Assembly: GCA_903884815.1 (NCBI GenBank)
Contig: CAISGE010000065.1
Coordinates: 1-63,962, forward strand
Direction of reading: 5' to 3'
Length of the DNA stretch: 63,962 bases
Source: Candidatus Omnitrophota bacterium
GTDB taxonomy: Bacteria; Omnitrophota; Omnitrophia; Omnitrophales; Aquincolibacteriaceae
Shown here: positions 500 through 50,700 of the stretch, piece by piece
Position numbering within the stretch: position 1 is the first letter of the stretch
How the letters are laid out: each line of letters begins with the position of its first letter
Position numbers and translations under genes: made by a program
Notes under the pieces: generated by a model
What the model was told of the DNA's origin: nothing
Seen by the model: the letters and a program-made list of their open reading frames with translations, nothing else
Databases searched by the model: none

Positions 500-562
500 A
501 CGAACTTTTCCCTATTCTGCTCGGTTGAGTATTAAATGTCCCGAAAGAAAAAACTCAACTTC

Positions 563-931: not shown

Positions 932-963
932 TGAGATTCTCCTTTGTTCTTGTTGTAATAAAA

Positions 964-18739: not shown

Positions 18740-20164
18740 CTAAGCCGGCACGGCCCGAAACGTTTCGTGGTGCAGGCCGGTTAAGCGCACTTTGACAAAC
18801 TTCCCGACACAATCCCCCGCAGATTCTAAGATCACGCGACGGTCTTGGTCCATGCGCCCCACAAATTCGCCAGCATTCCCTTCATGGCGTTTTTCCACAA
18901 ACAGAACACTGAAAGATCCGATAAGCGCCCGGCTCTTCTCTTCCGAGATCTTTTTCTGGAGGGACAAGAGCTCCTGGTTCCGTGCGGCCTTGCTCTCCGG
19001 TGGAACATCATCTGAAAGGCGGGCCGCGGGCGTCCCGGGACGTACGGAATATTTGTAAATAAAAGCGCTATCGAAGCGAATCTCTTCAAGAGCTCTCAAC
19101 GTTTCCTGGTGATCCTTGTCCGTCTCCCCTGAAAATCCGACGATAATATCCGTCGTCATGGAAATCTCCGGCACGAGTTCCCTCAGACGGTCGACTTTAG
19201 CCTTATATTCCGCGTAAGTATGATGCCGCCGCATCTTTTTGAGGACGCTATCGGAACCGGATTGGAGCGGTAAGTGAAAACGACGGCTGATCTTGGGATT
19301 TCGAGCGATCACCTGAAAAAGTTCCTCTGTCGCATCCTGCGGGTGCGAAGTCGTAAACGAAAGTCGCTCGAGTCCCGTGATGCCACAGAGCATCTCGAGA
19401 AGTTGAGGGAATGAGACTTCCACGGAATCTGAACGGCGTACGGCGTACGGCGTACGGGGTATGACTTCTTGGGACTCTGGGCGCCGTACACCGTACTCCT
19501 GAGCGCCGTACGAATTAACATTCTGCCCCAGCAGCGTGATCCATCGGACGCCACTCGCCACAAGCCGCTCGGCTTCTATCATCACTTCGCGTGCCGGCAT
19601 CGACACTTCCGCGCCGCGAGTTATCGGAACGATGCAAAAGGTGCATTCCTTGTTGCAACCCGTCATGATCGGCAGCCAGGCATGATAAGCGCTATCCCTT
19701 TTCGTGAATTCGCTGTATTCGATCGAAAGCCCGTCTTGCTTGATCCTTGCGACGTGACTTCGCTTTTCCAGAACATGGCGGATCATATCGGGGAGTTCTT
19801 TGATGTGACGCGTGCCGACCATCAGATCCAGATACGGGAATCGCTTGAAGAGCTTTTCCCGGTGTTCCTCGACCATGCACCCCATCAGTCCGATCACCAG
19901 ATTAGGCCGCTCCTTTTTTTCCGCGCCTAAAAGCCCCAGGCGCCCCCAAACACGCTCCTCCGCGTGGTCCCGCACGGAGCAGGTATTCATGAGGACGATA
20001 TCGGCCCCTTGAGAGATCGCGGGCCTTCCGGACACGAGCACGGTATCTCCAACGCCCTCGCCTTCAGCAAGCACCTCAAAACCCGCCTGCTCCAGGATGC
20101 CCGCCGCCACCTGACTGTCGTAGGTGTTCATCTGACACCCAAAAGTCTTCAACAAAACTTTCAT
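18740..20164 (-). CDS. miaB: tRNA-2-methylthio-N6-dimethylallyladenosine synthase
   Basis: MKVLLKTFGCQMNTYDS (UPF0004 N-domain), radical SAM CNKECTFCIVP, C-terminal TRAM-like domain. 474 aa. Confidence 0.92.
   Translation of the reverse strand: MKVLLKTFGCQMNTYDSQVAAGILEQAGFEVLAEGEGVGDTVLVSGRPAISQGADIVLMNTCSVRDHAEERVWGRLGLLGAEKKERPNLVIGLMGCMVEEHREKLFKRFPYLDLMVGTRHIKELPDMIRHVLEKRSHVARIKQDGLSIEYSEFTKRDSAYHAWLPIMTGCNKECTFCIVPITRGAEVSMPAREVMIEAERLVASGVRWITLLGQNVNSYGAQEYGVRRPESQEVIPRTPYAVRRSDSVEVSFPQLLEMLCGITGLERLSFTTSHPQDATEELFQVIARNPKISRRFHLPLQSGSDSVLKKMRRHHTYAEYKAKVDRLRELVPEISMTTDIIVGFSGETDKDHQETLRALEEIRFDSAFIYKYSVRPGTPAARLSDDVPPESKAARNQELLSLQKKISEEKSRALIGSFSVLFVEKRHEGNAGEFVGRMDQDRRVILESAGDCVGKFVKVRLTGLHHETFRAVPA
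19433..19512. repeat. Heptamer/palindromic GTACGGC-type micro-repeat inside miaB coding sequence
   Basis: ACGGCGT x3.4 at 19433-19458. Reverse-complement copies GCGCCGTAC at 19481-19489 and 19503-19511. Translated in frame as ...YGVRRPES...YAVRRSDS... Confidence 0.7.
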
Positions 20165-35200: not shown

Positions 35201-38200
35201 AGCTTTGAGTCCGGGTCGAATTGCTTCATCAGGCTACTCAGAATCGCGTAGCCTGATTTTCCGTCTTTTGTGTCAAACGGATTTTTTAAATAATCAGAAC
35301 CAAGCCGGATTCCAACTTTATATTCAGCGTCCCCCCCCTCATATGTTTTAAAATATCTTTCAGGTTGGGTACCGGGAACCATCACGCCCGCTTGGCTTTT
35401 GTATAGCTCACGACCATAGACTTTCTGCACCCAGAAGGATGCTCCTTCCACAAACCCGTCGGCATGGCAGCGAAAGGTCTCGGCTCCGTCAATTTGAGAG
35501 ATGATATTCTGGAACTGGGCTATGGGCCCCTTGCCAAGCGCGTTGAGACCCGCGTCGCCGGATAACGGTTTCATATTAAAGAACGCCTCACTCTGCAACA
35601 GGAATCCAGTGACGGTTTTTTCGATACCGTTGACTTTGAAGGTTTCAGAAAAATCCCACTTACAGTCAATGTTCGCAACGGTGGGCCGGACGCCGTCCGG
35701 GTGCTCTTTGTTGTTGTACTGATCCACGACCTTGATCATTTCACCCTTGAATTTGGTTGCTTGCTTGAAATCCATAGCTTGGAATTCAGCTTGAGCGGCC
35801 GACTTAACTTTTTCCAAAACAATAGATCCCACCGTGTTGAACTTGCCCGTACTCCAGTAAGACTCTCCATAAAAAGTCACAGTTGCTTCAAATTCAACCC
35901 CGGCCAATGAACCCCAATCCAAGTTGGTCGGTAAATAACCTCCTTGGAATCGGGTGGCCCCCAAACCTGACAAAAGTTCCATGGAACCACGGACACTGGC
36001 GCTGATATTCCCTGGTATTGCTCCGAAAATTTCGCAGTAATTATGTCCACCGTGTTCGAGGTCAAGGTTTTCCCCAAGGGCACGCAGAACCGACTCTGAT
36101 GTGATCGGGGTTCCGTCTTTTGCGGTAAAACGGATTGACAGGTCGCCGTGAGAAACTGGCCGCGAAGAATCGATCATAAAAATGGCGCCGACGAATTCGT
36201 TCGACACCCACTCACTCCTGATCGGCAACAGCGCATCAATGGCAAGGGCAGAAATGTTCTGGTCTTTCATCGCGGCATGATCATCGGCCCGGAGGCTGGC
36301 CAGAAGCCCCTTCAGGACCTCAACGTCAGAGATCGGCTTGCCGTCCTCGCCTCTCAAGTGACCCTGGACGACCGGATAGGTCCGGCCCGTCGCCGTGTCC
36401 TTCCAGTGGTCCGTCGGAAAAGTCTGGGCCGCATTTTTCGAGGCCGTCCGAATATCCGTCCGCTGCGCAGCCGCGACATCTTCCTTGCTTACCGTCTCTC
36501 CAGGAACCTTCGTCTGGCTGACGGTATAGAGACCCGTTTCTGGGTTCAACGATCCGCCCTTGAGGAGCCATCCGAATGTCGCTTCCTTCCCGTCCCGTGC
36601 GGGGCTTAATTGACCATACTCGGCCGAGAAGAGCAACACGTTTGCCACTGGGTCTAGGATCTGGAACACCATGTCCTTCGAGATCCCTTCAAGTTCCGTA
36701 AAGCCTACGGCCTGACCGCTAATCATAAACATCACTTTGCCCGTTTCCGTCCTCACCGCGGCGGCTGAAAGGGTCGTCGTATTGGTTTGCACTAAGGCGA
36801 TTTTTTCAGCACCAAACGTGTCTCCCTTGACTTGTAAGTGACCGACAGTGTAGAGGCCCGTCTTTTCGTTGTAGGACGTGCTCGTAAGGGTCCAACCATT
36901 CTCCGGGACAACACCGGGCGCACCGTCATTCAATTTTCCGTAAGTGGCCGTCAGGAGAACCGCATTTGTGAGCGTATCGGCAAACTGGAAGCTCATCTCC
37001 TTTGCGTCCCTGACAAGGGCGGATAGCCCGACTTCATTTAGAGTGCCGTTCTCATTCATGGATCCATCCGTAAGGAAAACACGGCCGAAGCCATCAGCTT
37101 TCGGGGCATCCTCGCGCCGCATACTGCCAAAAGCGACTGCCCGGGTATTTGCTTGAACCTTAGCCACGTCCTCAGCTGCAAACTTCTCGGTTTTAACCGC
37201 GAGAGTACCGACAATGGCAACACCGGCAGCTCCGTTGACCGCTTTACTCGTAAGGATCCAGGTGCTCGTCCCGTCGGCCAACTTCCCGAATCCATACGAA
37301 CAGACCATGATGTTTGTTTTCAGATCAACAATCTGAAAGGCGGAGTCCTTCCCGGCGTTAATAATGTCCATCGGAGAAACCACATTCCCGCTCGCGTCTT
37401 TAAAGACTACGCCGCCGGTTTTCACGAGCTCCGAGGATTTAGAGATCTCCTGGCCCTGGGTCTGAACTTTCGCAATATCCTCTGCGCGAACGTTGTCACG
37501 ATTCATGGTAAGAGAGCTAACAACGGCAACACCCTTCTTAGCGTCCAGTGCAGTGCTCGTTAGGATCCAAGATCCGGAAGAGGCCGCACCAGGCGGCGCG
37601 ACTTTCTGCGCATACATCGCGGATAAGAGCATGGCGCCCGTCCTGGTATCAAGAATCTGAAAGCTCATATCTCGGAGATCGTCCAGCCTCATTTTTCCGG
37701 CACCGGCGAGTCCGTCAAAACCAGTTTCTTTTCCGTCGGAATCCTTAAAAAATACGGAGGTGCGGGACCCCGTCTCCTTGCGTGCCGCGAACTCTGAAAT
37801 ATGTTCAACGTCCGCCTGAAGTTTTTCGACCTGAGCAGCGCTCACCTTGCCTTCTGGAACCTTTATGGAACCAGAAGCATAGAGTCCTGTCTTTTCATTC
37901 ACTGAACCTACCGAAATAGACCAACCGAACCCGAAGTCCAGCTTGCCAAAGGTCGCGGCGAAGAGCATCAAATTTGTCTTGGAATCCAGAATCTGGAAAT
38001 TCACATCGGTCCCGATCCCGGGCAATTTATCGAATGGGACGATCACCCCGTTTTGATCCCTGAAGATAACCCCGACTCCGTTTGAAGCTCCTTGCTCCAA
38101 AGACTGGGCCCCTTGCCGCCTCATGGTGATCACCCCGCTTGCGTCAATGTAGCTTCCCCCCACTTCAGCCGTCCGTTTTTCAGCTGCTTGCGCAAAAGTT

Positions 38201-41200
38201 TTGGCTTGGGCCTGAACCCTCGCGATATCTTCCTTACTCGCCGTATCTCCCTTAGTTTTTCCGGAGGCGATCGCGTAAAGCCCCGTCGCGGCGTTCATCG
38301 ATGTAGCTATGTAGGTCCAGCCTTTCCCCTGCGCTCCGCCGGGCCCTTGCTCCAATTCGCCATAGGTGGCGGAAAAGAGCATCAGGTTCGTCGCCGAATC
38401 GATCACTTGGAAACTTGCAAACATTGATTTGCCGAACAGAGACGTCGGATCTACCGGCGATGTGCCGTCTTTTCCATAAAACACGCCGGCTCCCGTAACA
38501 GGGTCAATATGCGTACCTGCCCCGAGGGATAACGTTTGTGAGAAAATATTTTCAAGGGCTCTGGTGCTCGGACTCTGCCGACTGGCGGGTGTCAGAGTCT
38601 CGACATACAGACCGTTTTTCTCGTTGTAAGCCCCGGTCCGGACTCTCCACCCTGAACCGTCGGGAAGTTGCTGGGAGCTCTGGACGCCGATTACAGTGGT
38701 TCCTTTTGCGTCCCAAAAACGGCTGATCGCAAAATCGCCATTGCCATTAGAAAAGAACTGAGACCGAAGGCCTGTCAGCATCGCGTACAGACCGTCGAGT
38801 TCCTGAACCATTGTCGGCAATAGCCCCGTGTTGTCGATCGAGACATCAAGAATTTGAAGACGGGTTGATTGTCCGCCCCAGGAAGATCCCTCTTTGGCTA
38901 TGTCGCCCGTGTGAAAGGTCCGCAACTCCTTGCCGAAACTCCATGAACCGTCAGGATTCGTGAATCGTTCGCGGGTGCTGTTGGCGCCGTTCTTGTTCAC
39001 GCTTTCAATGACCCGGCCTCCTCCGAGGACCAAATAAGTTCCGGCATTCGAACCAAAACCGGTCAACATTTGGGCACTCGCGAGTTTTGAGAGATCCGGC
39101 TTATCGAAACTCACACCGAATCCGTAAGAATCGGTGAAAGAAATGCCCTGAGAAACGCCAACGGTGCCAAGGGCACCCAGGATGAGGGCGAATTGCGCGT
39201 TATCTTTCGGATTGAGGGAGTCGATCACCACATCGCCGGGCCCCAAGAAAGACGCAATGCTGCGTAGGTTTCCCTTTGTCAGCCCCATTCCCTCGAGGGC
39301 CGGCTGGTCCTTCATCGCCTTTTGAAACTCAGCGGAAGTCAGTGCGCGATTTTCAAGATTCTGGACCGTGTAAATGCCATCCGGTACCTTCGCTCCAAAG
39401 CCCATGACGTCAAATTGTCCGCCGTTGGCTTTCCCGGAGCCGACCAATACTGACTTGCCAAGCGTGCTGAGATCGGTCGATCCGAAGAACCAGGTTACAT
39501 CGCCTTTGGTGAAGGTGATTCCTTCTGCGACCCCTGCCTGCTGAAGAACGCTCATCAACTGTCCAAATTCTGTCTTGTTGTCATCTTTGATCACCGTGCC
39601 ATCTCGCAACGTGATCGACCTGACATCGAACACCTCCCCTTTATCAGCACCCTTGAGGGCTGTCCGTGTCGTACCGGCAGCGGCCAGTTGATCCTTGGTC
39701 AGCGTCGATTTGACGGCGCTGATTTTACAGAGACCGTTTTCGGAAGCGTTCCGAAGTCCCTGGAACAGATACTGATCCAGGACTTTGCCCGTCGTAATAT
39801 CCAGAATATTGAGAGCACCGACAGAATCAAACCCGTTTCGTGAGAAGAAAAGGTAGTTGCCGGCCCGGTAAAAGATAAGATCCGCTGTGGCTGGATCAAC
39901 GCCTCGAGTGGCACCGACAATGCTGTAACGATCAGTCCCCTCAGCTTTGTTCAAATAGATGCGCAGAATTTTGCCTTCGGCACCTGTCGCCCCGACCAGA
40001 ACGTCCGTGGCCTTGTTGAGTGTAAAAGCCACGACAGGCTTTCCGTCCTTTAAGGTGGTAAGAGTCCGCTGTGTCTTATCGGTAACGGTCTGCCAGGTCA
40101 TGGCTTGGGGTGCGAAGTGAGCCGTGACATCAAAGCCGGCGATCAGGGCGCCAGATTTAAGATCAGTCACCAGAAGGGCGCCCAACGGACCGCCAACGAT
40201 GCCAGAGCCTCGCTGGAGTAACATGCCGTCCGAGATAAAGAAATTAATCGAGGACGCATCGTTCGACTGGCCCGTGGTCCATCCGATGATCTTGTTATTT
40301 TTGTCAAAGTAGAAGGCTTGGGTCTCTTCGGGAAGCGTTCCCTTCGTGTAATCCACTCTGACGGCGTCTTTATTACAATCAAAATGCGTCGGAGCATTCG
40401 GGTCTACCGACGAAGCCGGGTTCCTTACGAGAGGCAGGGCTTCAGCCTCAGGAAGCGCATGAGCGTCCGCAAGTGCCATCTGCTGATAGCTAGCGGTCTT
40501 ATTGGCCACTTCTGTTGCCATGTCGTTCATCATGCCGGCAACGGTGGCCATCAGTTCACTTCCCGTATCCTGAGCAATGCGGGAATAGCTCTCGGCCATT
40601 TCCTTGAGTGGTTTGGAAATATCTTCGACGGGAGCAATTTCCTCAGGAGTAGAAATATCCTTTGAATTCAACTGATTGTCATTCTCTAACTTGTCGTGTG
40701 CTTTTTGGGCTTCGTCCTGAAAATCTTTGGCGCTCGCGGGACCCCGCACGACCGGCTGGAAGGTTTTGATGTTCATGGCGCCGAGGCGATTGCCGCTGGG
40801 GTCAAAGAAGACGAGGTCGAGGCTCAAAGTGGACGCGACCTGGCGGCAGCTGATGCCGCCCACGAAATCGAAGAAGATAATGGATTTGAAGCTGCTCGGG
40901 TCACCCGTTGTCATACCGACCATCTGATAGTCGCCCTCTTTGCCGTTGAAGAATAGCTTGGTCAGCTTCTCGCCCGAACCGCTTACAAGAACGGTCTCAA
41001 AATGCGCATACTCGAGCGCTTCGCCGGTCTTGGGATTCTTGAGCGCGGGCAGTTCCTTGCGAGCATCGGCCGGCGTCTCGACTTTCATCATCACGGCCTC
41101 AGTCAAGCGAATATCCATCCCGCCCAACACCTCATGGGTCAGCTTGTCGCGAGCGATCAGAAATCCCGACTGTTCCTGGATCAATTCACAGCCCAGGACC

Positions 41201-41751
41201 TGCACGCCCGCGTTAAAGAGCGCGAAAGCGTACCCTACGATGCCAAACGAAAGAGCGGCCTGGGCGACAAAACGGCTGGTCGAAGACGATTCGCCGACCA
41301 CGGTCATTTCCCGGACAGAATTTCCGGTAAATTTGCCGAAGGAAGTCGCGCCTTTCCGGATCTCTTTTTCCGCGAAGACGGCCGTTTTAATGGAACCGCC
41401 GTCGGAGTAACGCAATGTGCCATTAACGTTCACGGCGACGATCGCGGCACCCTTCTCGGAGGCCGCCTGATACATGCATTTCGCGAGAAGCACCGAGCCG
41501 CTAAAGATCGCCTGAGAATAGCTGATCACACCAAGGCCCGCCGCGGCAGAGACAAGAAGTCCGCCGAGCGGATTATCATCATAGCCGACCGCGATCCATT
41601 TCCGGATCTCATTCCCGCCGAAGGCGCTGATCGCGTCATGCCCATTCGACCGGGCTTCGACCCGTTCAAGGAACGAAACCTCGATGACCCTGTCCGCAGA
41701 TATTGCGTAAGCCAGCTTCCCGTTCCCCTTATTGACCGCGACATACTCCAC
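20278..41751 (-). CDS. Giant multi-domain membrane protein, 7,157 aa as an independent ORF; probably the C-terminal half of a single giant gene of at least 14.5 k aa
   Basis: Uninterrupted 21.5-kb ORF. The annotated start is a GTG with no convincing SD, and its frame stays open a further 33 codons upstream of that GTG (back to a TGA at about 41853). Domain content is listed as separate features. Confidence 0.9.
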   Translation of the reverse strand: MEYVAVNKGNGKLAYAISADRVIEVSFLERVEARSNGHDAISAFGGNEIRKWIAVGYDDNPLGGLLVSAAAGLGVISYSQAIFSGSVLLAKCMYQAASEKGAAIVAVNVNGTLRYSDGGSIKTAVFAEKEIRKGATSFGKFTGNSVREMTVVGESSSTSRFVAQAALSFGIVGYAFALFNAGVQVLGCELIQEQSGFLIARDKLTHEVLGGMDIRLTEAVMMKVETPADARKELPALKNPKTGEALEYAHFETVLVSGSGEKLTKLFFNGKEGDYQMVGMTTGDPSSFKSIIFFDFVGGISCRQVASTLSLDLVFFDPSGNRLGAMNIKTFQPVVRGPASAKDFQDEAQKAHDKLENDNQLNSKDISTPEEIAPVEDISKPLKEMAESYSRIAQDTGSELMATVAGMMNDMATEVANKTASYQQMALADAHALPEAEALPLVRNPASSVDPNAPTHFDCNKDAVRVDYTKGTLPEETQAFYFDKNNKIIGWTTGQSNDASSINFFISDGMLLQRGSGIVGGPLGALLVTDLKSGALIAGFDVTAHFAPQAMTWQTVTDKTQRTLTTLKDGKPVVAFTLNKATDVLVGATGAEGKILRIYLNKAEGTDRYSIVGATRGVDPATADLIFYRAGNYLFFSRNGFDSVGALNILDITTGKVLDQYLFQGLRNASENGLCKISAVKSTLTKDQLAAAGTTRTALKGADKGEVFDVRSITLRDGTVIKDDNKTEFGQLMSVLQQAGVAEGITFTKGDVTWFFGSTDLSTLGKSVLVGSGKANGGQFDVMGFGAKVPDGIYTVQNLENRALTSAEFQKAMKDQPALEGMGLTKGNLRSIASFLGPGDVVIDSLNPKDNAQFALILGALGTVGVSQGISFTDSYGFGVSFDKPDLSKLASAQMLTGFGSNAGTYLVLGGGRVIESVNKNGANSTRERFTNPDGSWSFGKELRTFHTGDIAKEGSSWGGQSTRLQILDVSIDNTGLLPTMVQELDGLYAMLTGLRSQFFSNGNGDFAISRFWDAKGTTVIGVQSSQQLPDGSGWRVRTGAYNEKNGLYVETLTPASRQSPSTRALENIFSQTLSLGAGTHIDPVTGAGVFYGKDGTSPVDPTSLFGKSMFASFQVIDSATNLMLFSATYGELEQGPGGAQGKGWTYIATSMNAATGLYAIASGKTKGDTASKEDIARVQAQAKTFAQAAEKRTAEVGGSYIDASGVITMRRQGAQSLEQGASNGVGVIFRDQNGVIVPFDKLPGIGTDVNFQILDSKTNLMLFAATFGKLDFGFGWSISVGSVNEKTGLYASGSIKVPEGKVSAAQVEKLQADVEHISEFAARKETGSRTSVFFKDSDGKETGFDGLAGAGKMRLDDLRDMSFQILDTRTGAMLLSAMYAQKVAPPGAASSGSWILTSTALDAKKGVAVVSSLTMNRDNVRAEDIAKVQTQGQEISKSSELVKTGGVVFKDASGNVVSPMDIINAGKDSAFQIVDLKTNIMVCSYGFGKLADGTSTWILTSKAVNGAAGVAIVGTLAVKTEKFAAEDVAKVQANTRAVAFGSMRREDAPKADGFGRVFLTDGSMNENGTLNEVGLSALVRDAKEMSFQFADTLTNAVLLTATYGKLNDGAPGVVPENGWTLTSTSYNEKTGLYTVGHLQVKGDTFGAEKIALVQTNTTTLSAAAVRTETGKVMFMISGQAVGFTELEGISKDMVFQILDPVANVLLFSAEYGQLSPARDGKEATFGWLLKGGSLNPETGLYTVSQTKVPGETVSKEDVAAAQRTDIRTASKNAAQTFPTDHWKDTATGRTYPVVQGHLRGEDGKPISDVEVLKGLLASLRADDHAAMKDQNISALAIDALLPIRSEWVSNEFVGAIFMIDSSRPVSHGDLSIRFTAKDGTPITSESVLRALGENLDLEHGGHNYCEIFGAIPGNISASVRGSMELLSGLGATRFQGGYLPTNLDWGSLAGVEFEATVTFYGESYWSTGKFNTVGSIVLEKVKSAAQAEFQAMDFKQATKFKGEMIKVVDQYNNKEHPDGVRPTVANIDCKWDFSETFKVNGIEKTVTGFLLQSEAFFNMKPLSGDAGLNALGKGPIAQFQNIISQIDGAETFRCHADGFVEGASFWVQKVYGRELYKSQAGVMVPGTQPERYFKTYEGGDAEYKVGIRLGSDYLKNPFDTKDGKSGYAILSSLMKQFDPDSKLLTEYRIGLGLTQFEVVDSKGVTASLEARSYEWGSVWTHIGYGSEATVTYKFLPDITKDGRISTIRSISYGKDGTDKGVEHRDSLSYHPAWAIGGFWEMVVTTKRETLLGDKWNHDENQDVTQYFREPGRFYGDYKDWNSETGFMRKDGSMAFADAVFIDQINSQRGAIALEKGHLNFWFQPNLFVSYGRPITGFAYEILHDARTYSHWIVTPSLELSGALGADLRTFHSGSSWTSTDLNTGVSTEVEIHFWEITRLYSPSTIIMAASLTPMVVATAYMWVEAMPAVLVTAGAYCTAAGFAATAVKWAWQTFGDLKETDLAYKTLTVIEVGGLVIGTICSGFSMRAATSKLAAAAKTTEAVAAGAKAVETGAAVVKATTPFWKIATGVNSFSQISKTAYTIVNISHFVQGTLTAGITIGLGMAAAGGIRMAFGGDSQLLIHGIAIAGFAFGARFMFAFGPSLVELNAVGKLGELNAAGMQGWKYFHLGSGMLNVAAFGAGIGMEMYGYASGKQFWQDLGQKFLIGSLVLLAGRGIALAIPVRGIVLARMLSADGLALDGIAGLGSMGRVVARVVQQSALLKVSTFEILLLDAGKSVITFHMLPVAMAALYTDQVFEFMLNKINPSWHFLDERSRSEGYLGHVRSVFQQQFLDPNAWAPSRILHDVILGQALHLFAPTFSAGLLGRFSATNGLFRAIIPDSGSAWVRTLFTKLLTKEGADYLGAAFAYADNLILFNTVIATGKSIALVAQANAGVAEPAPKAGSSVPGIADVGAILKDLASIPGFFAGMFGAHLSGNSDSFKAAFLSFGSSLEKASILLVPQAGGNLRPSFSDVWRSGELRDQNLVLNLSLENRTQFFEFVESGKQDEALTLLRTIRPTEVPTSNALGERELMLLGQFSLWKFLGTSDGLGSMVNIGAAECAALARGLEQTLAGLEPAKRAAFDAALKQAIETDAWSPSNGGKPPIENAFGILDVALPRILKSLNVSQRDALIEAVKTGRWDTAQDVLKESAKSTQQTIYGLRQVNKARLEFLMKDLEQNKRLNLENFNINKKEQKLGAEGLADIFLRGKLAPEDVTNLFKRMAEACQALLLENWIQPGVQTFLRASNEERASAYATFFSAEKKAETPTAPSETLATETKVEVTETAPKPAEARASIAQRIGGLLPPALRGLEGRLEANDVFMRSIAEALLTAIPRDEFAGFLNAFANSGRNIEQLGGIGRFTFLGEVTRRMNLQTVDDFKKLVTSIYDAFSKIEVTQNVAEKEGLAPQAAEPVAGIVVTISGKQAFLDLTADAADDFCRLVSGLDLKGTFSKILGDAAVSAPYEGTLLETLIAKMVDWNSNVRLAVFVRVMNGDDATPETTAAFNALFKKAEELQKDKRFMSPVEALSEVATQLAKQYLDNSPDAKKDALLAQAGVVDLVLKIMAFELAPQVRRFAADLNLEIKNGKAVIEITPEIQKSLKARVSHPELVEFLLKQKLADVNAWLERIEVQNWLTSLPPELQSAAIDRAAFGAFHFILTHGTKEFNALDFKADTGHLLTAIIAAHNAYMENQANDAYSNPSADLFAHLQNMDNDSHIRQGAVEEIENAFDAAKTTHPTLTYHEFFKVYLAKACAAQGGGGFESYARIFTFRDVGPRTGETAPSLRDFFSSLGGMKNHEKMLRTAVIISEKSVKLSMEQQKGLMGGLVGNLLNAAVGSGKTFLMVAYDYVFSANIHIAESKEGIERIVAEATATKSAAENRTNEEKLANNLRMRYINGEKLIERITRGATQEERDTAYAELIKILAGFTDTDGFRWVLAVSFTTLGHLMTHFRSTDLQHYREFSRVFQSSMRVMDEVHRVVDPTYFILGGDAMKAVELPQFFLYCAANELFVDDHNVGQNSIMLWERNGELFDRRGTKVTPADETQHLIVTESKDYFDRNKGDKAVIWVQTATYEMVNKSNQVAEFFSRGPGKTALKERYESIIERENQGIENEEDQIRPLSDLTLYTSELESILKYQSIRTENVEAGIINGIRRGAGDQYRPKGSDGKQQDSQIISDTVGLITISYKLNDAGLSHELAGLGIKDEVGADGSYMTGDSALSIRPIVGETNRYERLGLDIIRNSAKNIEKTNTLTASSMFDLFIMGGGASAAYGMSGTVAEVALQAKMIVGRNTEVIFGKGGFADAYVHELLAEKGGEDALPGEARKALSLKQWDTSGKSDQQQAAFIARELYDARGHGDAMRSVLAGILSDTVIKLVRLELLKLGLTEKDIMVIDGSAEGQNNVLKNVQKFNEGSTEKIVLAAQHALIGFNYQRDNMLYAAFTPQISSVMLMQNQGRVARTISMHSIFESMVREYAKGEVSARAFEKTVKEATGLDNDPRSLSEILNADASAILTALGRPQYSRELELVQAHLNGEPGWRSARQSELETILNSTYWADYRDATKRAWNVDAATTFTDYLAKAESSSNVDSEGFTTVLKDETAKKFADRDENGNLKAGGKSHDRFDAEIRIYLNTEFLESLLGGLDFKAIAAWRDFFQPRMDTAAGEAYKYGDSLKNSKFYNGPKDATAPKDIVGILDRLQENEGDWKKLSQAEQMLLSYAMNSARAADATARSLTGQLMDFALMFNPMRDAMMMANFVEGDQGIKERAILYEFNLELMRHYGTNYEMERGEDYANGPRSVQGLVGSKAKTAKEQLNAFLKGTGKDLSESVKQVLKDAVETAGHVQLRAGAEFATIRENQLRGDYDGQFFGNLGFKTDVKERADTMIAIALGFAMEFAPQLQGAEKPAGLDAGRQSSEVARPVAELAQATRDEAGRDRLGTLSGGPFKANVTKNSETGERILKIAGIEIALNAIRDANLKELLTNNALLNVTFKGGLAIFSVNYEDEMKSYLETQASWLKTLLGEDGFKNWKSYLTLYHELLGTGLTHEEIAELRAAIPREDTVQTLAKLAAQVEATGPQQALRREVIVKHLDVSGPVLNALASLEPGKFVKLATLAEQSQIDNSVFARAGFSAAETAQWGSVIDPLAFYQVLRKMPLAKYQQVSEGVFRGALKKALALSMLATGVDTRRAISDERRTNLKAVITQAAGILGQDPSAFYDALDCSKVAGASGQFSNPVSLVMSRVLALASELTPSSEQLRKSAQAVAAARRSGKAALANVEKQITDAIGTSLFVPKVNTLLVQLQFIKKLSEKNGLSMSQIMDLWRETDWKRTEALKTAEATANLWLAAKANPITFGDQSQFELKSLRDAELLVRLNLGITSRVKGFLTVLRENGIVFTHSDDLYNNLNGLSLISDMGPKNLALDVKNTLRRRFVKNGHIIQSLTGAPLVELKGQTVETLEFHGGEWIAKTDRGVAVFFGGDKVRVEAAPGVTASMEDNRVVMNGLVDEYGRPMEFQRHSMVSALSVEFIGDASGNQVIQISSGAENHEGGFADINLEKGVVQNVLLFDNVNQHTRDAGPVLYARLPSGKSFVPVQTADGRKIMLAGGATRMTPDGIKLDGKVFTLAELTNFDPAKSTMAQDKKELLENWLRISAYSTEFAASRALLPAYLKARKQSESLGAQFMAIMDAMISTRNAGIVPVDDISILDHILSKLTPGTDDALISIINEQKLAFAAELKTANSKARADFLAAMTPSERFQTMLRLMQTARLAGNDHFIQGVDFARAATELIRDRSFDKKAREMLLEHSSYELIHDFLKALQDIDVGDHELNSLRAQLSELLDPLSESKRTKDRVTDLQDIVPVMEKILKMLPGKVALAKKAGISTEKAAVYKSALAKTTDTFKDLQTYQDAYVLFIDVATKKKLQAKQIDAKGESTMVDFTVPIARELSALDLLNTARHLSGAQNLGEFLRDAAKRGDYGAMAEYFVFSMENNEHGSHRLQIEPARRSKFVELIEKHLKDGKIYYGVVNFDKFNTGEGTSRLGESMDIPAASNFPGMPGETEQRRQDRWMEQHGYTNLGVPVFNVAEDIVEELGEYYDFMKNNWVQSTGAEAVVSHEAKSARDAKGRPNWITSTGIVLVADYWWKQSPQHEYKHVTHPRPYLYSRNDSSGMIMMEEVFNFFGQVVEQLEDREHGHPYNWEGIDRKLESYARGHNFNPDIMKASFRSFVRLYQLHGPQAVRFGKYITNASDLVLLDALTPEQLQRMDAAKNSRELTAQVILEALKDELMPNGTTVAGKVTEESTKLIDELLKSEAAKPGDQQMTADELTRAKARLIERVLRENTGDGYQRLLNFLTANAPNAVVDNSLDALRAAAYKALNLDANYQPQPLIEDDDKGSVQSILSQLLDGKQVSVRDEAKALDQMREIINKLLAAEGLSSNQFKFEQVPGKGLFLTIPPKDPATAGKPIGFLGHIDVRTEVADDLAATIDSFGNVRAKDPSSALGADNRSGLAIILNTIRKLVAEGHTNEIRLIITTGEEVGLGILHAEQDRAFNKALRKILSGVERIYSADRQNQTEKTKDDYGRGSSVEEISVDAATGAVTYKEVTSMAEGTMPSRNVEHYIDAPVDRTGRYKGAIANVVGEKGVLIDGLTSGAQDESHKGEIAENSNGDFYHIRRFNTQTGQFEADKSSGNQIEVVTNIFTGYYAHLRGFESTNLNELNEMADVMMDLVTDLAPDALPEVKPEAMIEEEAEPSVAEEETVPADEKRSELHDLKPSDKVADPATAKVNAWKGLAVEAVGRLTPGQLDRIDPKLLIKAINTLPIKVFTVKQEPLLKGKSGFERELPGGAREIVLNSEVVERMTPSQLKDFVIHEAIHGVQAEVNRGILAESRRLDAEMQALSIMVEVMDESLLRESWTAMLAAARGDINTRDESLRSDLEHFAQLTATAMIPAGVGIEAMLNRINVERYVVAGAAKRLGDQPGRKPLDETALAKEMPEFKKLAEAGRTEHVSFEVLAQDIPAGSNLEKLLGILKSQGFMVFVVKEADILTDADLGRESWLVQYALGVGKTQFDNVMLQYASIPKPEGFYPIGSYLANEAIRRILDALMATRQTEVAA
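20900..21250 (-). other. Zincin-like HExxH motif region near the C-terminus of the giant protein
   Basis: ...GGAREIVLNSEVVERMTPSQLKDFVIHEAIHGVQAEV... HEAIH is encoded at 21001-21015. The HExxH-x-Q pattern resembles DUF4157-type zincin signatures. Motif-level only. Confidence 0.45.
21490..22260 (-). other. Clan MH (M42/M28/M20-like) metallopeptidase-like domain in giant protein
   Basis: Ordered motifs: GFLGHID (H-I-D at 22207-22215), LGADNRSGLAII (22102-22122), ITTGEEVGLGI (EE at 22015-22020), later ...YYAHLRG. Spacing and order match co-catalytic aminopeptidase ligands. Confidence 0.6.
28240..30200 (-). other. Divergent SecA-like DEAD motor / SF2 ATPase domain in giant protein
   Basis: QQKGLMGGLVGNLLNAAVGSGKTFL (Walker A at 30103-30126; compare SecA QLLGGMVL..IAEMRTGEGKT). 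VMDEVHRVVDPTYFILGG (DEVH at 29692-29703; compare [20 protein letters not shown]). TLTASSMFDLF...AYGMSGTVAE (28795-28809; compare LASITFQNYF..LAGMTGTA). MQNQGRVAR (28246-28269; motif VI QxxGRxxR). Confidence 0.65.
32800..34420 (-). other. Transmembrane-helix cluster 2 (giant protein, downstream ORF)
   Basis: Runs of hydrophobic 18-25 aa segments, roughly 8-12 helices by eye. Examples: IIMAASLTPMVVATAYMWVEAMPAVLVTAGAY (34321-34400), LLIHGIAIAGFAFGARFMFAFGP, FLIGSLVLLAGRGIALAIPV (33541-33600). Confidence 0.7.
36400..38500 (-). repeat. Six tandem protein repeats of about 110-140 aa ('FQILD' repeats) in giant protein
   Basis: Recurring pattern: GV.F.D..G......(S/M)FQ(I/V/F)(L/I/A)D..TN.(M/V)L(F/L)SA.YG.L....GW.L.S...N..TGLY........G......ED(I/V)A.VQ. 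FQ anchors at about 38410, 37995, 37660, 37335, 36990 and 36668. Confidence 0.8.
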
Positions 41752-44730
41752 ATTCTGCCCGAGCTTCTTGTCGTAATATTTGATGAGCTGGACCGCGCCG
41801 AGATTCTTCCCCCCCGCCGAAAAGAGCGGTGTCGTAGAACTGGGTCAGGCCGAACTGGTTGGCTGCAGTGAGAATGAAATTCCTCAACGCCTCTTCCACC
41901 AATGTCCCGCCGAGCGTGAAGTTCATCTTTCGGATCTCGTCGCCGAGGATTGGATTCTCCTTGGTGCCTAGGAGATTGGCGCCGACCGCCCCGAGCTCCT
42001 TCACGGTCTTCAGGACTTCCTCCGAGGTTCCGACCGACTGGAACTTCCCGCCACCCACGGAAACTTTCAGCGAACTTCCGTCCGCGATAGCCGCGAAGGA
42101 ATTCTTCAAAAGCGACCCGTTCTTCGCAAACGTCGCGGGCACATAGATCACATCGACGATGGGTTTCAGAGCATCACCGAGAAAGATGCCCTGCTTGTAT
42201 TTGATGATCCCGAGGCCCATCGCGGTGTTGAGGAGCAGGTTCAGGAGCTCCGGGGAATCTTTCAGCGAGGTGATCGTATTTTCTTTGATCTGATCGCCGC
42301 CATATTGTTTCGCGGTATTAACCGCATTGATATCCTTGAGAACCTGATCACGCTCGATCGTTTTTGTTTGCCAGCCTTTACCATCCCGATACTGAAAGAT
42401 CTCGCTCCCCGGTTTATCCAGGTTGAGCACACAGAAGGGCAGTGCCGCCCCATTCGCCTGGCGGATAAAACCCGTCTTGCCAATCACTTGCCCAGCACTG
42501 TTGAGGACGTCTAACAAGACATTTCCGGGAAGTGCGCTTAACAGCCGCGTCGTAGCCTCCGCGATCTGTTGGTTACTGGCCCCTGCGTTGAGCATATCCC
42601 TGAAGAGCACCAGATTCTCCGAGAGATTCCCGGTCTTATGAGTCGCGGCGGCGGCTTTCAGTGTGTTGATCTCGGAGACGGCTTCGGGCACGGAATCCGC
42701 CTTTCCGCTCCAGGGGATCTTGCCCCCGTCCGCGGCCACCAGGGTCACATCCATAAATTCGATGACTTTATCTCCGAGCGCCTCCTTGAAAACCGCGAAA
42801 ACTTCTTTCGAGTTCGCGTAAAAACCAGGCGCGAGATGCGTCATGAGGGCGAACTGTCCGCTCTGGAAAGCATCCGCGAGGGCTTTGCCGAATGCAACGG
42901 CGCCGTCCGGCGGGAAAGCAAAGGATCCGTCCTTATTCACGCTCACCGAATAATTGAATAGGTTGAATTTTGAGGCGATATTCCGGACAGTGTCAATATT
43001 CGCGAACGCCGCCCCCATGAGCGTAGCGCCCGAATCTTCTCCGGCCATTTCCTGGCGCATCGTCCCGCCGAACTTCATGCTCGAGCCGTTCTTCCCCATG
43101 ACCGAGACATTCGACATCCGGAGTTCCTGGAAATATTTTCCGCCTTCCTGTTTCAGAAGCAGTTCAAAATCACCCAGCAGATTACCGTTCTTTTCGAAGA
43201 TGCTGATCCCGATCACGCCCCGGCCGACATTTTCCGCTTCCGTAGTGACCAGGCCCTCAGCCCCTGCCAATTCGGGCATCAGAATATTTTTGAATATAAA
43301 ACTACTGAGTTTGGACACGTCCTTGCGATCACCCAGGTCGTAATTCCCGCTCGCGACCTCTTTCTGGATTTTATCGACTTTGGAGAACACGCCCGCGACC
43401 CCCTGCTCGTTCATCGCGAACGCCCCATTCAAATTCAGGAAGGATCCGTTCTTGCCGGCGATCTTGACGTCCTTGAAGGTTCCGCCTTCCGGATCGAACT
43501 GGAAGGAGCCGAAAAGACTGCCGTCAGCTAGGTAAAACTTGATGGCGAGTTGAGAGAGATTGAGAGAAGCGAAGTTCTGCACCACAAACTGCGAGAGCTT
43601 CTGCATATCCCCGACATTCGTCAGATCGAGCCGGCTTGCGAACTGTTCGAGCGTCTGGATACTCGCGAGAGCGTTTTTCATCCCGTCTGTTTTACCGGCG
43701 ATGTCGATAAAACCTTTTGCGCCCGCCAGGCGGACACCCTGGAAGCTGACGGAATTACTGGTAAAAGTGAAATCGCCGAATTTTACGCCGTTGCGGTAGA
43801 ACGTGATCGTTACTTCCTTGGCGTAAAGGCCGTTCTCGCCTTTCCCCAGCATGCTTTGAAGCGCGTCGCCGAAGCCGATGAGGTCTTTGGCGTTCGCGGC
43901 GATGAAATTCAAATTAAAATCGAGCGCGAGGTCGGCGATCGCCTTGATGTCGTGCAGCGCTTCCCGCGTGTTGCCGACAATCCCCTTGACATCGATCTGA
44001 GCACCGTCCTTGCCGAAGGCAGTGAATTCATAAGTCACATCCTTCGCCGTCCAAGTCAATCTTACGTTCAGGTCACGGTCACCCTTTTCATGATACATCT
44101 TGAAATTCGCGGAAACGCTTTGGCCGGCCTTGAGCATGGACTGCAGCCTGTCCCCGAAAAGAATGAGCAACGCGGCGCCTTTGCTTGTAGGATCAAGGGC
44201 GTCCCGGAACTGTGTCATGAAATTCGTAATCCCGAGTTCTTTGGCCAGGTCCCGTATCCCGACCATGAGATCCAGCAAAGAGCCCATATCGCCTGACTTG
44301 ACGATCCAGTCGGTGCCGAGATCCTTGTAAAACGACGTCACCGAGTCCGAGGTCACCTCAAACGCAACATTCGTGAAAGTCTCGCCCTTATAGGAAAATT
44401 CAGCCACATTGAAACGAATCATTTTTGCGTCAAAACTGACCTGATCTCCGAGCAACCCCGCGAGACCTTGCTGAAGCATGTTCCCGAACGCCACCAGATG
44501 ATCGCCAATCGAGAGATCCACCGAGGCACCGAGTTTCGCAGAAAGCTCGCGGCCAATCTCATTTAAAGCCGCGATATCCTTTTGAGAGAGAAGATCGACT
44601 TTGCTGCCATCCTCGCGGACCCCGCGCATTCCGAGGGAGATCTCGTCCTTAAACCCGTCCAATCTGACATTTTCATATTCGATGCTGGCAAAATCCTCCC
44701 GGCTTTGGTCGACACGCACGTTCGTAATAT
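40750..44730 (-). repeat. Array of degenerate beta-rich modules of about 90-110 aa spanning the junction of the two giant ORFs
   Basis: Upstream ORF modules include VTITFYRNGVKFGDFTFTSNSVSFQGVRLAGAKGFIDIAGK, IKFYLADGSLFGSFQFDPEGGTFKDVKIAGKNGSFLNLNG and ISIFEKNGNLLGDFELLLKQEGGKYFQELRMSNVSVMGKNGSSMKFGG. Downstream ORF modules include VEYVAVNKGNGKLAYAISADRVIEVSF and IVAVNVNGTLRYSDGGSIKTAVF. Confidence 0.6.
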
Positions 44731-47700
44731 TCTTGGGCTCCTTATCCGCTTTTGTCGCCTCTCGGTCGATCAATTGATTGAGCACAGAAGGCGCGGCCTC
44801 GCCGATGAGCCCTATCTGCGTAACAAGCATGGCAAAAGCTTCCATGGTTATAACCGGATTAATGCTGAGATTCGTGCTGATTATGGTCTGCATCCAACCG
44901 TGCTGCTCGTCATAAGAGAGACGAACCTGAACGCCATCCCGGAGCGTGACGACCCGGTTGTTCTTATAATCCTCTTCCGTGATCCCATGTTCTTTGAGCT
45001 CCTTTGCTCCCTTCTGAGCGTCGAAGGACTTACTAGGCGTCGTCAGGGACTGAATGAGTGTCTGGATCGGCGTCAGGAGAAGTCCGGCAAGCGCCTGTCC
45101 CCATTTTTCTCCGCCAATCGTAATAAGAGATTCACTGTAGAAAGCGGACTGCGCGCCACTGGCGAATCCGCTAAGAAATGCTGCCGCAAAGTCGATGGCC
45201 CCAAAACTAGCACCACCGAACTGAGCGTCATACATACCGCCAAAAGCAGCGCTAAAGCCGCCCTTGAGACCATCGCTCAAGACGGTATCCCACAGTGATT
45301 TTTCAGTCAGGCCGGCATCGTTGGGACTTTTTTTGAGCGCTGCGTCGATCACTTGGGGGATGAGTACATCCGTGAGCAGCCTGCGGCCGATGCCCTGCAT
45401 AATAGCGCCCCAACCGCCCTTTTCCGAAATGTCGCTAAAAGAACCGAATCCCAGATTTTTTTGCGCCGGCGTTGGCTCAAGGTTCGTCGGAGTCTTGCCA
45501 ACGGTTCCAAGTTGTTTGAGAGAACCCGCGATCGCCCCGATCACGGCCCCCACGGCAGCCATGACAATGCCTCCCAGCATTCCCGCAAAGAAACTCTTGC
45601 CTTGCACCACGGCCGCAATGCCGCCGAGGATACCGCCGACGATCGCATTAGGAACGAAAGACTGAACCATCGCCCCAAAGAAGGAGTAGTTGGTAGGAGT
45701 CGAGAGACTGCCCAGCCACTTTCCAAAATCTGTATTGGAGAGAAAGTCATTAAGATTTGCGGTAGCCCAAGTGCTCACGATACTCGTCAGAACACCCACA
45801 CCGAGGGTCGTGAGGGCAGCGCTGAGACTTCCGGTGGAAAGATAGGTCCCAATCGCCCGAACAACAGCTCCCATGATACCGCCGACAATGGTGGCAGCCA
45901 TAGGCATCGAGACCCCCAACACGGTAGATATCGCTGTGGCAAACGCGGACATGGCTGCGCCGTACGTGCCAAACATTGCTGCCATAGCGGGTGTGGCAGC
46001 TCCCCAGGAGATCACAGAAACGATGATGGCGATAATCGCCATGATGATCTGCCCCAATATCCCACCGCTTACTTTTGTTTTTTCGGAGGTGACGTGCTCG
46101 CCGCCTTCAAAAACGCCGTTCTTGAAGCCAACTTTGTCGAGGGTCAGGTTGTTGGCCGCAGCGTAACTCCGCGCGTAATCTTCATTGAAGAAAACAACGC
46201 TCTTGCGCGTATAGGTGCTGGTGGACCCGAATATCCCCGAGCCGGATTTTGTCTTTACCTTGATCTGCCTATCGACCGACAGGAGCTTGTCTCCGTCGTA
46301 GTTGTAGTGACGGGTTTCAACGCTCGTCTGTCTTTTCTGCGTGACCTGGAGACCCCAGATCGTCTCCGTTATGACGCGAGACGGATCAGCCCTGGAAAAA
46401 GTGCGGAGCATCGTCGCATAATTGCTGCGAGTTTCGGGGGCATAGCCGATATAAGTGCGCTGGAGAACGCCTTGAGCGTTAAGCTGGGTGCTGCTTGTGG
46501 CAACAAAGATCAGGACCGTGCCCCCTTCGAGATTGGTCCCGAATTGATCGATCACGAGCGCCGTCTGGTCGCCTCTTGCAAAATTCCCGAGGGCATCCAG
46601 GACACTCATCGTGAAGCCCTTTTTAATATTCGAAGAGTCGAGATACACGGCGACCGCTTTTAACATATAGGCCGCATTCGTGCCAACATCGACTCCGAGG
46701 CGTTCGGCCCGGGACGAGAGCCGGCGGAGCTGGGTGGACAGGTCGGAGTAGATCTTGCTGATCGCAGCAGCATCGGTGGTTCCCGCCAAAGCCGCATCGG
46801 CGTTCTTGACGAGGCTTTCGACCTGCTTACTGATCTTCTTCAACTCCTTCATCCGGACCTGGGCGCTGCGGGCAGCTTCCTGCTGGGCCTTGATCTGGCG
46901 ATCCGAAGCCCAGGCGGAAGTCGTTCCGGCCGACCAACCCGAAGTCGTGGTGCCCGTGACGGACCTATATTTTGAAACGCTCGACATACGGTTATTGGCA
47001 AGAGTCAGGCGTGTCTGATACGACGTATGCGACCCGGCAGCCGTGTCCGTCCAGCCGACAATATCGTCTGTTCCATTGTAGACATAGTCCGTGGCGTAAT
47101 AGGTGGTATAGGTCGCGCCGTTGGAGGAGGGCTCGCGTTTGGTGGAGCTCATCACCCGGCCGTAAGAATCGGTAACATAATTGAATTCAGTGTGAGCAGC
47201 CCCTATTCGTGCCTCATAAGCGGACCAGGAATATTGAAGAACGCGGTTCCCCAGCAGATCGGTATAGATCACCACCGTCGACTGAGTCAGATCGTTTGCG
47301 GAGCTGACCGTGAGATGATTCTGAACCGTGGTGGTGATAGCCCCCCATTCGTTCGTATCGATCAGTGTCGTTGCCCAAACATTCCCCGAACGATCATATT
47401 CCGTGAATCCCGTGCGGTACTCCAAACCTTTCGCCCCCGCAAGATCGGCAACGACCGTATGCAGGGTCGAAAAATCCGTCATGGTGGTGCTTCGCAGAGC
47501 TCCGTAACGGTCATATTTGTAGACCGTGGTCTGCACATGCGATTGATCAAGACCGTAGTGGAATGTCTCGAAACGCTTCCCGTCGGCAAAGAAGGTCCGA
47601 CTCAGGATCTGTCCGTTGCGGTGGACATCCGTGATCGAAACAAGAACGCCATGCGGGTCAAAAGCGTAAGTGCTCCGAATCCCAGAGGGTTGCTGAACTG

Positions 47701-50700
47701 TAGCGACCTGCCGGGCACTTCCCGATGCGGAATAATCGTAATAAGCCCGATTAGTCACCACCCAGACCGCAGCGCCGTAAGTGACCGGAGGAGTTTGCGC
47801 CAGATGCGCAGGGTCTACCGTTTCTGTGAAATTCAGTGATTGAGTCTCAACATAAAGAATCCGGTCGCTCAGAAGCCCCGTTCCGTACACATAGGTCTCG
47901 ATGGTCGCAAGCCGGTTGTACTCATCCTGGCGCTCGATCCGTGAGATCGACACCCCATCCGCTTTGTAGAAGGTCGAAGAATCGAGCTGTTTGCCTTCCG
48001 ACTGCGAGAAAGAATAACGGTCCGTACGGTCCAGTATCCCGTCGGTGCCGTAATGGAGCTCGCTTACCGTGGCCCCCAACATCGCTGTTTCGAACTTATC
48101 GCTATGCAAGTCTTTCCCGACATCAAGGCTCTGGACCGCGAGGACTCCGTACTTACCGCTTGGGGGTGTATCCGTCTGAAGATCGATCCACGGCAGTGAT
48201 ACCCGTCCGGCGCGGGCCAGTTCAATGCCCGTGTTAAAGTAAACAGCACTGGTGATATAGCCATTCGCGCGACTGACCTGATGCGTAATGATGGGCGGTT
48301 GCACTCCGTCCTCGTAATAGTAGCTCTGAGTCCGTGTCACTTCGCTTTGGATGTCGTAGGGACTTGTAGATCCCGGCGTCTGGACATAATCGATCCGTTC
48401 GGTGTAATCGACATTGCCGTCGGGACGGTAGAAGGTTTGCTGGGAGAGGTACTCCTGGGATCCCGTGTATGTGGGCCCCACCGATTCCGGCGTTGCGCCC
48501 CATAATCTCACGCTATTGATCCCTAACCAATTCTCAAGGTCATTACCACTACCCCTTACATAATAAGGAGCCTGACCCGCCCATGAGAGGGTGACTTGAT
48601 GCGTGCCCGATAAAGCTTTTGAAAAAGAAAGGGTCGCTTCATCCGTGGCTGTGGCGGAAGTTGAAATATCTCCCACTTTGACGCCATCGACAAGAACGGA
48701 AATCCCGAAGGGAGCCCACCAGACAGGCTTGTCATGATAATTTGAAGTACTGATCTGAAGAGCCCAATCCGAGGCTTGGGCGCCAAAATCCATGGTATAG
48801 CTGACCGCACCGCCCCAACTGGACCAAATGCTTGTCCCATTCGCTGTCCATGGTCCCCCTGATGTCGTACTCACCGAAGAGCCCATGACGGTCCCCCGCA
48901 ATCCAACTGGCGGAGCGCCGGGAGTAGTTGCCGTTACGGTTGAAGTCGGGGTCGCAAATGTCGTGCTATAAAGGTCGCTTCGCTTGAGGGCCTGGGTCCT
49001 GCTGTCATAGACCTGAAAGGTCCGGCCATAGGCCGCGACCATAAGCCCGTTATTGATCAGGGAACTGTTGATGAGATCCTGCGAGAGCAAAAGACCGCTT
49101 TCCGGGCTCGGTGTGACAACGAGCTTGTAATCCTGAACAACCACCGCTTTCGCCCCGTAAACGGCAGGATCGTAATAATCCTGGCCGAGCCGCTGGAGCT
49201 CGGTTTTGCCGTCGGAACCAACGACGTTCATCGCCGCGTATTCCGCGCTTGTGTTAAAAAACGTCGTATGGATGAGCACATCGCGGTCATTCATCGCAAC
49301 AGGCGGCCCGCGGATCGCATTCACGACATCGATCTCGCCGCTCGCCGTGTATTCATCGATCCGGGTAAGCGCCGTCGAAGAGCCGTTCAAGCCCGCACGC
49401 TCGTCGTAGACGTAAACCGAATAGGTATCAGGGACCCTTGTACCCGGAACGGTACCGTCTTTGTAATTCACGATATACGAAATACGATCCCCGCCGTCCC
49501 GGTAATAGGTCACGCGCTCTTTCTGAAAGACAAATCCCTCGGTCGAACCCGTCGCCTGCCATACACTCTTGAAATCCTCCGTTCGCTGCATCGCGCCCGT
49601 TGCCGAATCGTAGTAATTGTAGGACCGCGTCGAAAGCCGCTCCTCAAAAATAGGAGAAGCCTGAAACGCGAGAGGCGAATCGATACGAACCTCTGAGATC
49701 GTCACTTTCCCGTGCGCGTCAGCGAAGGCTCCAAAGCGAATATTTTCCCAGGTATCATCCCCGACCTCGACAGAGTAAACATTCCTAAACGAGCTGGGCT
49801 TGCCTTTTTCGCCAAATGAGATCATGAGCATGCCGTCCTTGACTTTGGCCTGAAGGGTATAGGTCTTGGCCGGATCCATGGCAAATTGATTATCCTTCGG
49901 GATCCACGTCGGCGTAGTCGCAGCTCCTGAATATTGCATAAAACCCACCATCCCCGTGGCGTTGAGTCCATTGTAGATATTGCCGTCGGTGGCCACATCC
50001 CCCTGCCGGAGAACGAACGCCTGGTAATTCTTATCTTGAGGATTAAGTCCGTTATCGAATCCGATCCAGTCGTTTTTTCCTAGCGCGTCCATCGTGAAAT
50101 CGAGAGACATCGAAAGATCATTCACAAGAGACTGAACGTTACCCAAGATCAATTCCGGCACCACCGCGGAACCTTGAACCACGGCCACGCCTCCACCGAA
50201 TGCGACGCCTACGGCTGTCGCAACGCCCGCGGGCGGCGTGTAACCAGTCACATTCTGAATATTACCGGGCCCGGCGAATGGCAACGACGACACTCCGAAA
50301 TATTGCGCGGTTACACTCATGAGCCCCAGCGGAACGTCATAGTCATTTGGTGCGGCCGAAACCCGAATATATTTAACTTGCTGGGCTGAAAAACTAATGC
50401 TAACGGGAACTCCTGGCGCATAAGGGAAATTCGACGGAGTCACGTCCCGGTAATTACCGTCACTTCCCGCAATGGCAATAATGGGCGTCCCCGAATAATC
50501 GCCGCGTAATGTGACCGTCACGGTATCGATCACTTGAGGTGTCGCCAGCGTGCTCTCAACCAAAGTGGCATAATTCGCACCATTATTGATATAGTCATTG
50601 GTTTCAGAACCAAGCTCCACAGGTATCAGCGGAGCCGTAGGAAGAGGGGCCAAGCTGAGAGCTCCATCGAATGTCGAGACTGTGGAACCCGAGGGAACAC

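Follow-up and report, generated by a model that had tools for sequence, protein, structure and literature searches.

A surplus G in a homopolymer run probably splits a giant Omnitrophota gene in one metagenomic assembly

The window analysed here is the whole of contig CAISGE010000065.1 (63,962 nucleotides (nt); assembly GCA_903884815.1), deposited for a Candidatus Omnitrophota bacterium, and its minus strand carries two giant open reading frames (ORFs) that meet at a run of seven G residues (G7; 41809-41815, C7 on the plus strand). The upstream ORF was listed at 41729-63895. The downstream ORF (20278-41751) encodes 7,157 amino acids (aa) from a GTG start and lies in the +1 frame relative to the upstream one, so that the two listed ORFs overlap by 23 nt. 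As the upstream frame is without a stop from 63895 to the last base of the window (63962), the 5' part is cut by the end of the sequence. In what follows, the upstream part (41816..63962, minus strand, open to the contig end) and the downstream part (20278..41814, minus strand), which comprises the downstream ORF and the 21 codons before its GTG and whose stop adjoins miaB, are treated as the 5' and 3' parts of one giant gene.

Around the run, the minus strand reads ...ACC GCT CTT TTC GGC GGG GGG GAA GAA TCT CGG.... The upstream ORF runs as ...QFYDTALFGGG up to this point and then continues into an arginine-rich tail of 26 codons, EESRRGPAHQILRQEARAECGVCRGQ (41729..41808, minus strand), which ends at a TAA/TGA-type stop at 41731-41729. 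The downstream frame is open on the 5' side of the GTG at 41751 for 31 codons, back to a TGA at 41847-41845 (minus strand). Together, this TGA and the stop at 41731 require the frame change to fall within 41731-41844. Deletion of one G from the run gives a stop-free frame reading ...ALFGGGKNLGAVQLIKYYDKKLGQNVEYVAVNKGNGKLAYAIS..., in which the peptide across the junction of the full-length product is FGGGKNLGAVQLIK; a single frame is restored by one G fewer or by two more. Counted from the GTG at 63895, the fused frame encodes 14,538 aa; counted to the window end, it has 14,560 codons. Two other G/C runs of seven or more occur in the gene, at 31705-31711 and 35331-35338 (G8), and both are in frame. 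The earlier note on this DNA had described the locus in much the same way: a +1 change at G7, confirmed here by sequence and codon usage, a fused ORF of at least 14,560 aa once one G is removed, QFYDTALFGGG followed by an arginine-rich tail, and two other long G/C runs in frame. It had also described the +1 frame as open upstream of the GTG, which is correct, but its figures of 33 codons and a TGA at about 41853 give way to the 31 codons and the TGA at 41847-41845.

The coding signal was scored as a codon-usage log-likelihood ratio (LLR) per codon, trained on the remainder of the two ORFs. Windows of 26 codons have a mean LLR of +0.48 ± 0.19 when read in frame (minimum -0.15) and mean values of -0.78 and -0.83 when read off frame. 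Before the run, the DNA scores +0.60 in the upstream frame versus -0.68 in the +1 frame; after the run, it scores +0.92 to +1.04 in the +1 frame, and the 26-codon tail of the upstream frame scores -0.98. The sign of the LLR is thus exchanged at G7, which places the change of the native coding frame at the run, and the tail after G7 in the upstream frame is not native coding sequence.

The junction sits among degenerate modules (41095-42253, minus strand), each about 95-115 aa long, which follow one another and open with a hydrophobic motif close to A-x-x-[LF]-G-[LIV]-x-x-Y-x-x-[AG]-[LI]-F-x-G (for example AMGLGIIKYKQGIFLGD, ANQFGLTQFYDTALFGGG, AAGLGVISYSQAIFSGS and ALSFGIVGYAFALFNAG). Two of these motifs were scored as transmembrane-like in a crude hydropathy scan, and the motif is also kept in a distant homologue from the genome UBA2337, described below. 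After the motif, the fused +1 reading, YVAVNKGNGKLAY, matches the neighbouring module, IVAVNVNGTLRY, in agreement with the resemblance to flanking modules that had been claimed for the six-G reading, and no match of the arginine-rich tail was found either to the neighbouring modules or to the homologue. The 19 codons KNLGAVQLIKYYDKKLGQN, which precede the nominal GTG in the downstream frame (41752..41808, minus strand), are predicted to be native coding sequence of the giant gene by their LLR (+0.92), by the homologue and by their fit to the module.

The gene of MiaB (18740-20164), located directly downstream of the giant gene, was used to find other assemblies of the same locus by exact sequence. 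In the European Nucleotide Archive (ENA), contig k141_1313222 of ERZ27313102 (90,437 base pairs (bp)) has a gene of 16,347 aa upstream of miaB that lies wholly inside the contig. Two shorter contigs, Logan ERR4195937_53224 (50,103 bp) and k141_1091131 of ENA ERZ27245625 (31,543 bp), have genes of 14,509 and 8,417 aa at this place, each beginning at the contig end. Since the distance from the junction to the stop is 7,178 codons, all three gene calls, being longer, run through the junction in one frame. Over the 21,024, 16,460 and 16,176 nt compared, which within the giant gene cover 20278-30164, the three contigs match the window without gaps at 100.000% identity; on this identity, they belong to the same strain. 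The GTG at 41749..41751 (minus strand), given as a start in the ORF list, is therefore, by the same-strain genes and by the homologue, an internal valine codon of the giant gene and no true start.

Among about 15 billion proteins, the 7,157-aa split product is found on exactly one contig, that of this window, and its cluster at 90% identity has one member. The neighbouring MiaB is present on 30 contigs, and the frame break is thus peculiar to the present assembly. At 16,347 aa, the complete gene extends 1,787 aa (about 5.4 kilobases (kb)) beyond the 14,560 codons of the window; the window is the entire deposited contig and ends inside the giant gene, whose first 5.4 kb or so it lacks. The sample of run ERR4195937 was taken in Finland, in Lake Alinen Mustajarvi (PMC10244341, Table 1). 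StratFreshDB includes 42 samples of this lake; its reads are Illumina NovaSeq (2x150), and MEGAHIT was used to assemble them both sample by sample and, as co-assemblies, lake by lake (PMC8121793). The name of one related scaffold begins with BUCK21, and the contig of this window may be a further assembly of these data.

The 1,200 fused residues centred on the junction (39964-43563, minus strand) were searched exhaustively with HMMER against 1.84 billion representative proteins. This gave two matches, the window's own 7,157-aa ORF and a partial protein of Candidatus Omnitrophica (HCM43306.1). The latter aligns with 28% identity (E 7e-38) in one continuous stretch over query residues 134-835, the junction being at residue 600. 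Upstream-frame residues are aligned as far as ...ALFGGG and +1-frame residues from ...LGAVQLIKY on, with the downstream-frame residues after the junction paired with GAVSNIQH... of the homologue. A longer copy of this protein is encoded by Candidatus Omnitrophica UBA2337 (DDUN01000054.1) in a stop-free frame of 14,076 nt, and it aligns to fused residues 6763-7598 as one domain (E 4.8e-64). At the site homologous to G7 it reads TTC TGG GGC GAT, with no long G-run. A comparison with orthologous loci had been proposed in the earlier note, and the UBA2337 homologue proved to be uninterrupted across the junction.

In a locus search with the fused protein, neither the GTDB species representatives nor the JGI metagenomes yielded a close relative, and an alignment-based scan found only UBA2337 in genomes and no match in the JGI metagenomes. 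A word-indexed protein search with an 810-aa junction query and with the helicase-like region returned nothing, the index evidently being without such long or cut products. The isolation of the sequence is extreme: the 1,200 aa around the junction have one non-self homologue lineage among the 1.84 billion representatives.

The two ORFs are most probably the halves of one giant Omnitrophota gene, the extra G being a private, non-programmed indel; we give this a probability of about 0.9, because the same-strain assemblies are uninterrupted, the homologue aligns across the junction and the codon usage switches frame at the run. According to this explanation, one surplus G in a mid-gene run would shift the frame by +1 and lead to 26 junk codons followed by a stop, after which an ORF finder would assign a false start to the GTG that comes next in frame. 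The surplus G might have arisen by homopolymer slippage in one of two ways: as a sequencing or in silico miscount in data of the NovaSeq/MEGAHIT type, or in vivo, as a private loss-of-function allele in the population of the sample. Within this explanation, an assembly or sequencing artefact and a real private allele are about equally probable, the artefact being slightly ahead. A run of G7 is short for an Illumina/MEGAHIT consensus error, which speaks against an artefact and in favour of a real allele; against a real allele speak the lack of the break in the other assemblies and the lack of a second difference in 21 kb. Two further points weigh against the explanation as a whole. The G count in the three other assemblies is deduced from ORF continuity only, G6 at the run being the simplest assumption, and one interrupted contig versus at least three identical uninterrupted ones would also be expected from a reversible switch operating at a low rate. 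As for a private homopolymer indel as such, the coding signal was found to continue in the shifted frame, and the single-base difference follows from frame continuity.

An event of this kind has been described before. Single-base indels are reported to put Omnitrophota giant genes out of frame, and in one Illumina-only case two adjacent giant ORFs were merged after a local assembly error had been fixed (West-Roberts et al. 2023, bioRxiv 10.1101/2023.11.21.568195). The present case, a giant gene divided by a homopolymer frameshift in a single metagenomic assembly, is ordinary in kind and involves no new mechanism. The locus resembles homopolymer frameshift pseudogenes and consensus errors in general in the single-base difference in a G/C run, the short out-of-frame tail and the false downstream start; here, too, the difference is private to one assembly, and the only unusual trait is the size of the split gene.

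Three mechanisms had been offered in the earlier note, namely a homopolymer error, a phase switch and programmed +1 frameshifting, of which the first, extended to a private slippage mutation, stands; a phase switch is not supported by the data, and programmed frameshifting is contradicted by them. Adaptive phase variation, in which reversible slipped-strand mispairing at the G-tract would toggle between the full-length protein (ON) and a protein truncated after the first transmembrane-like cluster (OFF), the OFF state being caught in this contig, appears unlikely. It would account for a G-homopolymer whose length differs between otherwise 100% identical assemblies and for a truncation point that falls after a hydrophobic cluster, and the giant gene probably encodes a surface or predation protein, a class that is often phase-variable. 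However, ON and OFF states do not recur among close relatives: the OFF product was seen on a single contig, at least three contigs of the same strain show the ON state, and 30 carry MiaB. The ON tract would be merely G6, whereas known homopolymer switches usually have at least 8 nt. Nor is the tract unusually long, over-represented or close to the 5' end, as it consists of G6 or G7, lies about 56% into the gene and belongs to a depleted category, with 7 G/C runs of six or more observed in the gene versus 18.5 ± 4.2 expected from codon shuffles (for runs of seven or more, 3 observed and 4.9 expected). Moreover, the longer G8 run (35331-35338) is in frame, and there is no run at the homologous site in UBA2337. 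Poly-G contingency loci in surface genes of Campylobacter, Neisseria and Haemophilus are alike in the frame switch at a G-tract and in the probable surface association of the gene, but the tract here is short, mid-gene, neither enriched nor conserved, and OFF was seen once. If such a switch did exist, G7 cells would make only the N-terminal, surface-exposed part of about 9,150 aa with the first transmembrane-like cluster, the half with the motor and the peptidase would be turned off, and it would stand as the first report of a contingency locus in a giant gene of Omnitrophota with a putative role in predation or attachment. As a separate observation, the depletion of G/C homopolymers of six or more could reflect selection against slippage-prone tracts in an ORF of 49 kb.

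Programmed recoding, in which G7 is true and either a +1 ribosomal frameshift at GGG GGG G or transcriptional slippage restores the frame, is very improbable. In principle, GGG_GGG_G may permit tRNA-Gly to re-pair in the +1 frame, and the G-rich run could serve as an internal Shine-Dalgarno-like element. At the shift site, though, there is neither a stop or slow codon nor a stimulatory RNA structure: the 0-frame codon after GGG GGG is the common GAA, the stop comes 26 codons on, and local RNA folding shows no gain over shuffled sequences (z = +1.42). The site is not conserved in the homologue, and no relative was found to require a frameshift, the identical strains and the distant homologue encoding the protein in an uninterrupted frame; productive transcriptional slippage, moreover, is known mainly for A/T runs of about nine or more. 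The likeness to prfB-type programmed +1 frameshifting is limited to the need for a +1 change to read through, as this locus, unlike prfB, lacks a stop or hungry codon where the shift would occur and lacks a conserved stimulator, and identical strains need no shift. A real boundary between two genuine adjacent giant genes, with the GTG at 41751 overlapping the stop at 41729, is scarcely credible, even if two ORFs that overlap by 23 nt are listed by ORF finders and a protein record has been deposited for the 7,157-aa product. The frame is continuous in the three same-strain assemblies and in the sole homologue, native-looking +1 coding sequence extends upstream of the GTG, the statistics of the tail are those of an off-frame reading, and the boundary would fall inside a repeat module. 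There is no promoter-like site in 41400-42200, where scanning for promoters and terminators around the junction gave nothing or only chance-level matches, and there is no Shine-Dalgarno sequence before the GTG at 41751. The latter absence had been used in the earlier note against the start; the observation is correct, but it was dropped as an argument, as about half of the well-supported genes on the contig are also without such a sequence.

For one gene interrupted by a private indel, the consequences concern first of all the annotation: the deposited 7,157-aa protein and the cut one of about 7,410 aa call for a merger into the 16,347-aa protein or for a frameshift flag, and splits of this kind distort how many giant genes are counted in Omnitrophota and how their sizes are distributed. 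If the indel is a real allele, the truncated product would end about 1,230 aa past the first hydrophobic cluster, and the 21.5-kb remainder would probably not be expressed, because of the absence of a promoter and of a real start and because of the expected transcriptional polarity. Should reads show a mixture of G6 and G7, loss-of-function alleles of a 49-kb gene would segregate in a clonal lake population; such heterogeneity, if true, would bear on the costs and benefits of giant genes, and none of the present findings requires this reading.

The domain content of the giant protein is sparse. Two hydrophobic, transmembrane-like clusters were located by the Kyte-Doolittle scale, a crude method (19-residue windows, at least 1.6): cluster 1 at fused residues 5940-6130 (45506..46078, minus strand), about 1,230 aa upstream of the frame break, and cluster 2 at fused residues 9827-10106 (33577..34416, minus strand). 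A P-loop/helicase-like region (28243..30123, minus strand) contains the motifs GSGKT, DEVH, GMSGT and QGRVAR in an order that, by eye, is SecA-like, with a long insert between DEVH and GMSGT. No Pfam match to SecA_DEAD was obtained for this region even at E <= 1, ResIII (E 0.097) alone being matched; there was no sequence match in PDB, and a single-sequence AlphaFold2 model was unusable (predicted local distance difference test (pLDDT) 37). The SecA-like domain that had been proposed here is therefore upheld at the level of motif resemblance but not by the Pfam and PDB sequence searches. The proposed peptidase-like domain is marginal: a Peptidase M42/M28-like segment near the C-terminus (21859..22119, minus strand; Peptidase_M42, E 2.2e-5) reaches 24.1 bits in a 1,000-aa excerpt, above the cut-off of 23.2, but 22.0 bits, below it, in a longer segment.

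In the N-terminal half, Pfam recognises a single domain with confidence, F5_F8_type_C_2 (54809-55045, minus strand; E 4.2e-8), which is of the NedA-like galactose-binding (discoidin) kind and consistent with a putative carbohydrate- or surface-binding extracellular part. Dockerin, glycosyl hydrolase and C39 domains had no Pfam match in the giant protein. The N-terminal region (about 60300-63895, minus strand; fused residues 1-1200) has a recurring motif, T-x-S-Y-S-W-T-D-x-x-S/T-G-R-x-F-S-L-S, whose copies, seen by eye in the translation, include SYSWTDKESGRRFSLS, NYSYKDEQTGRSFGLN, LSYVFHDASTGLNYSLS, LRYGFTDRQTGQTYSLS and MSYVYRDKDSSATFSF and suggest a repeated module.

The giant gene fits the class of Omnitrophota giant genes, its membership being given by size and host rather than by domains. 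Regarding the host, the 90% identity cluster of the contig's LipA bears NCBI names 'Candidatus Omnitrophota bacterium'. Genes of this class are characterised by numerous transmembrane regions and a divergent SecA_DEAD helicase domain (West-Roberts et al. 2023). The present gene is like them in its host, in a length of more than 10,000 aa, in the near absence of Pfam-detectable domains, in its hydrophobic clusters, in a motor-like P-loop region that follows a transmembrane-like cluster and in its discoidin domain; it differs in that 16,347 aa is modest for the class and that no SecA_DEAD is recognised by Pfam.

Rfam and tRNA scans of the window gave no match. Among the other genes of the contig, a type IV pilus/type II secretion-like cluster (134-3848, minus strand) includes a PilB/GspE ATPase (2178-3848), a PilC/GspF protein (964-2178) and two small N_methyl prepilin-like ORFs (563-931 and 134-499), all on the minus strand. 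On a longer contig this cluster extends to another pilin-like gene and a Laminin_G_3 protein. The lipoyl synthase ORF (9389-10306, minus strand) has 305 aa from its first ATG, but other assemblies and records give the gene 261 or 300 aa, and from these differing calls its start codon is ambiguous.

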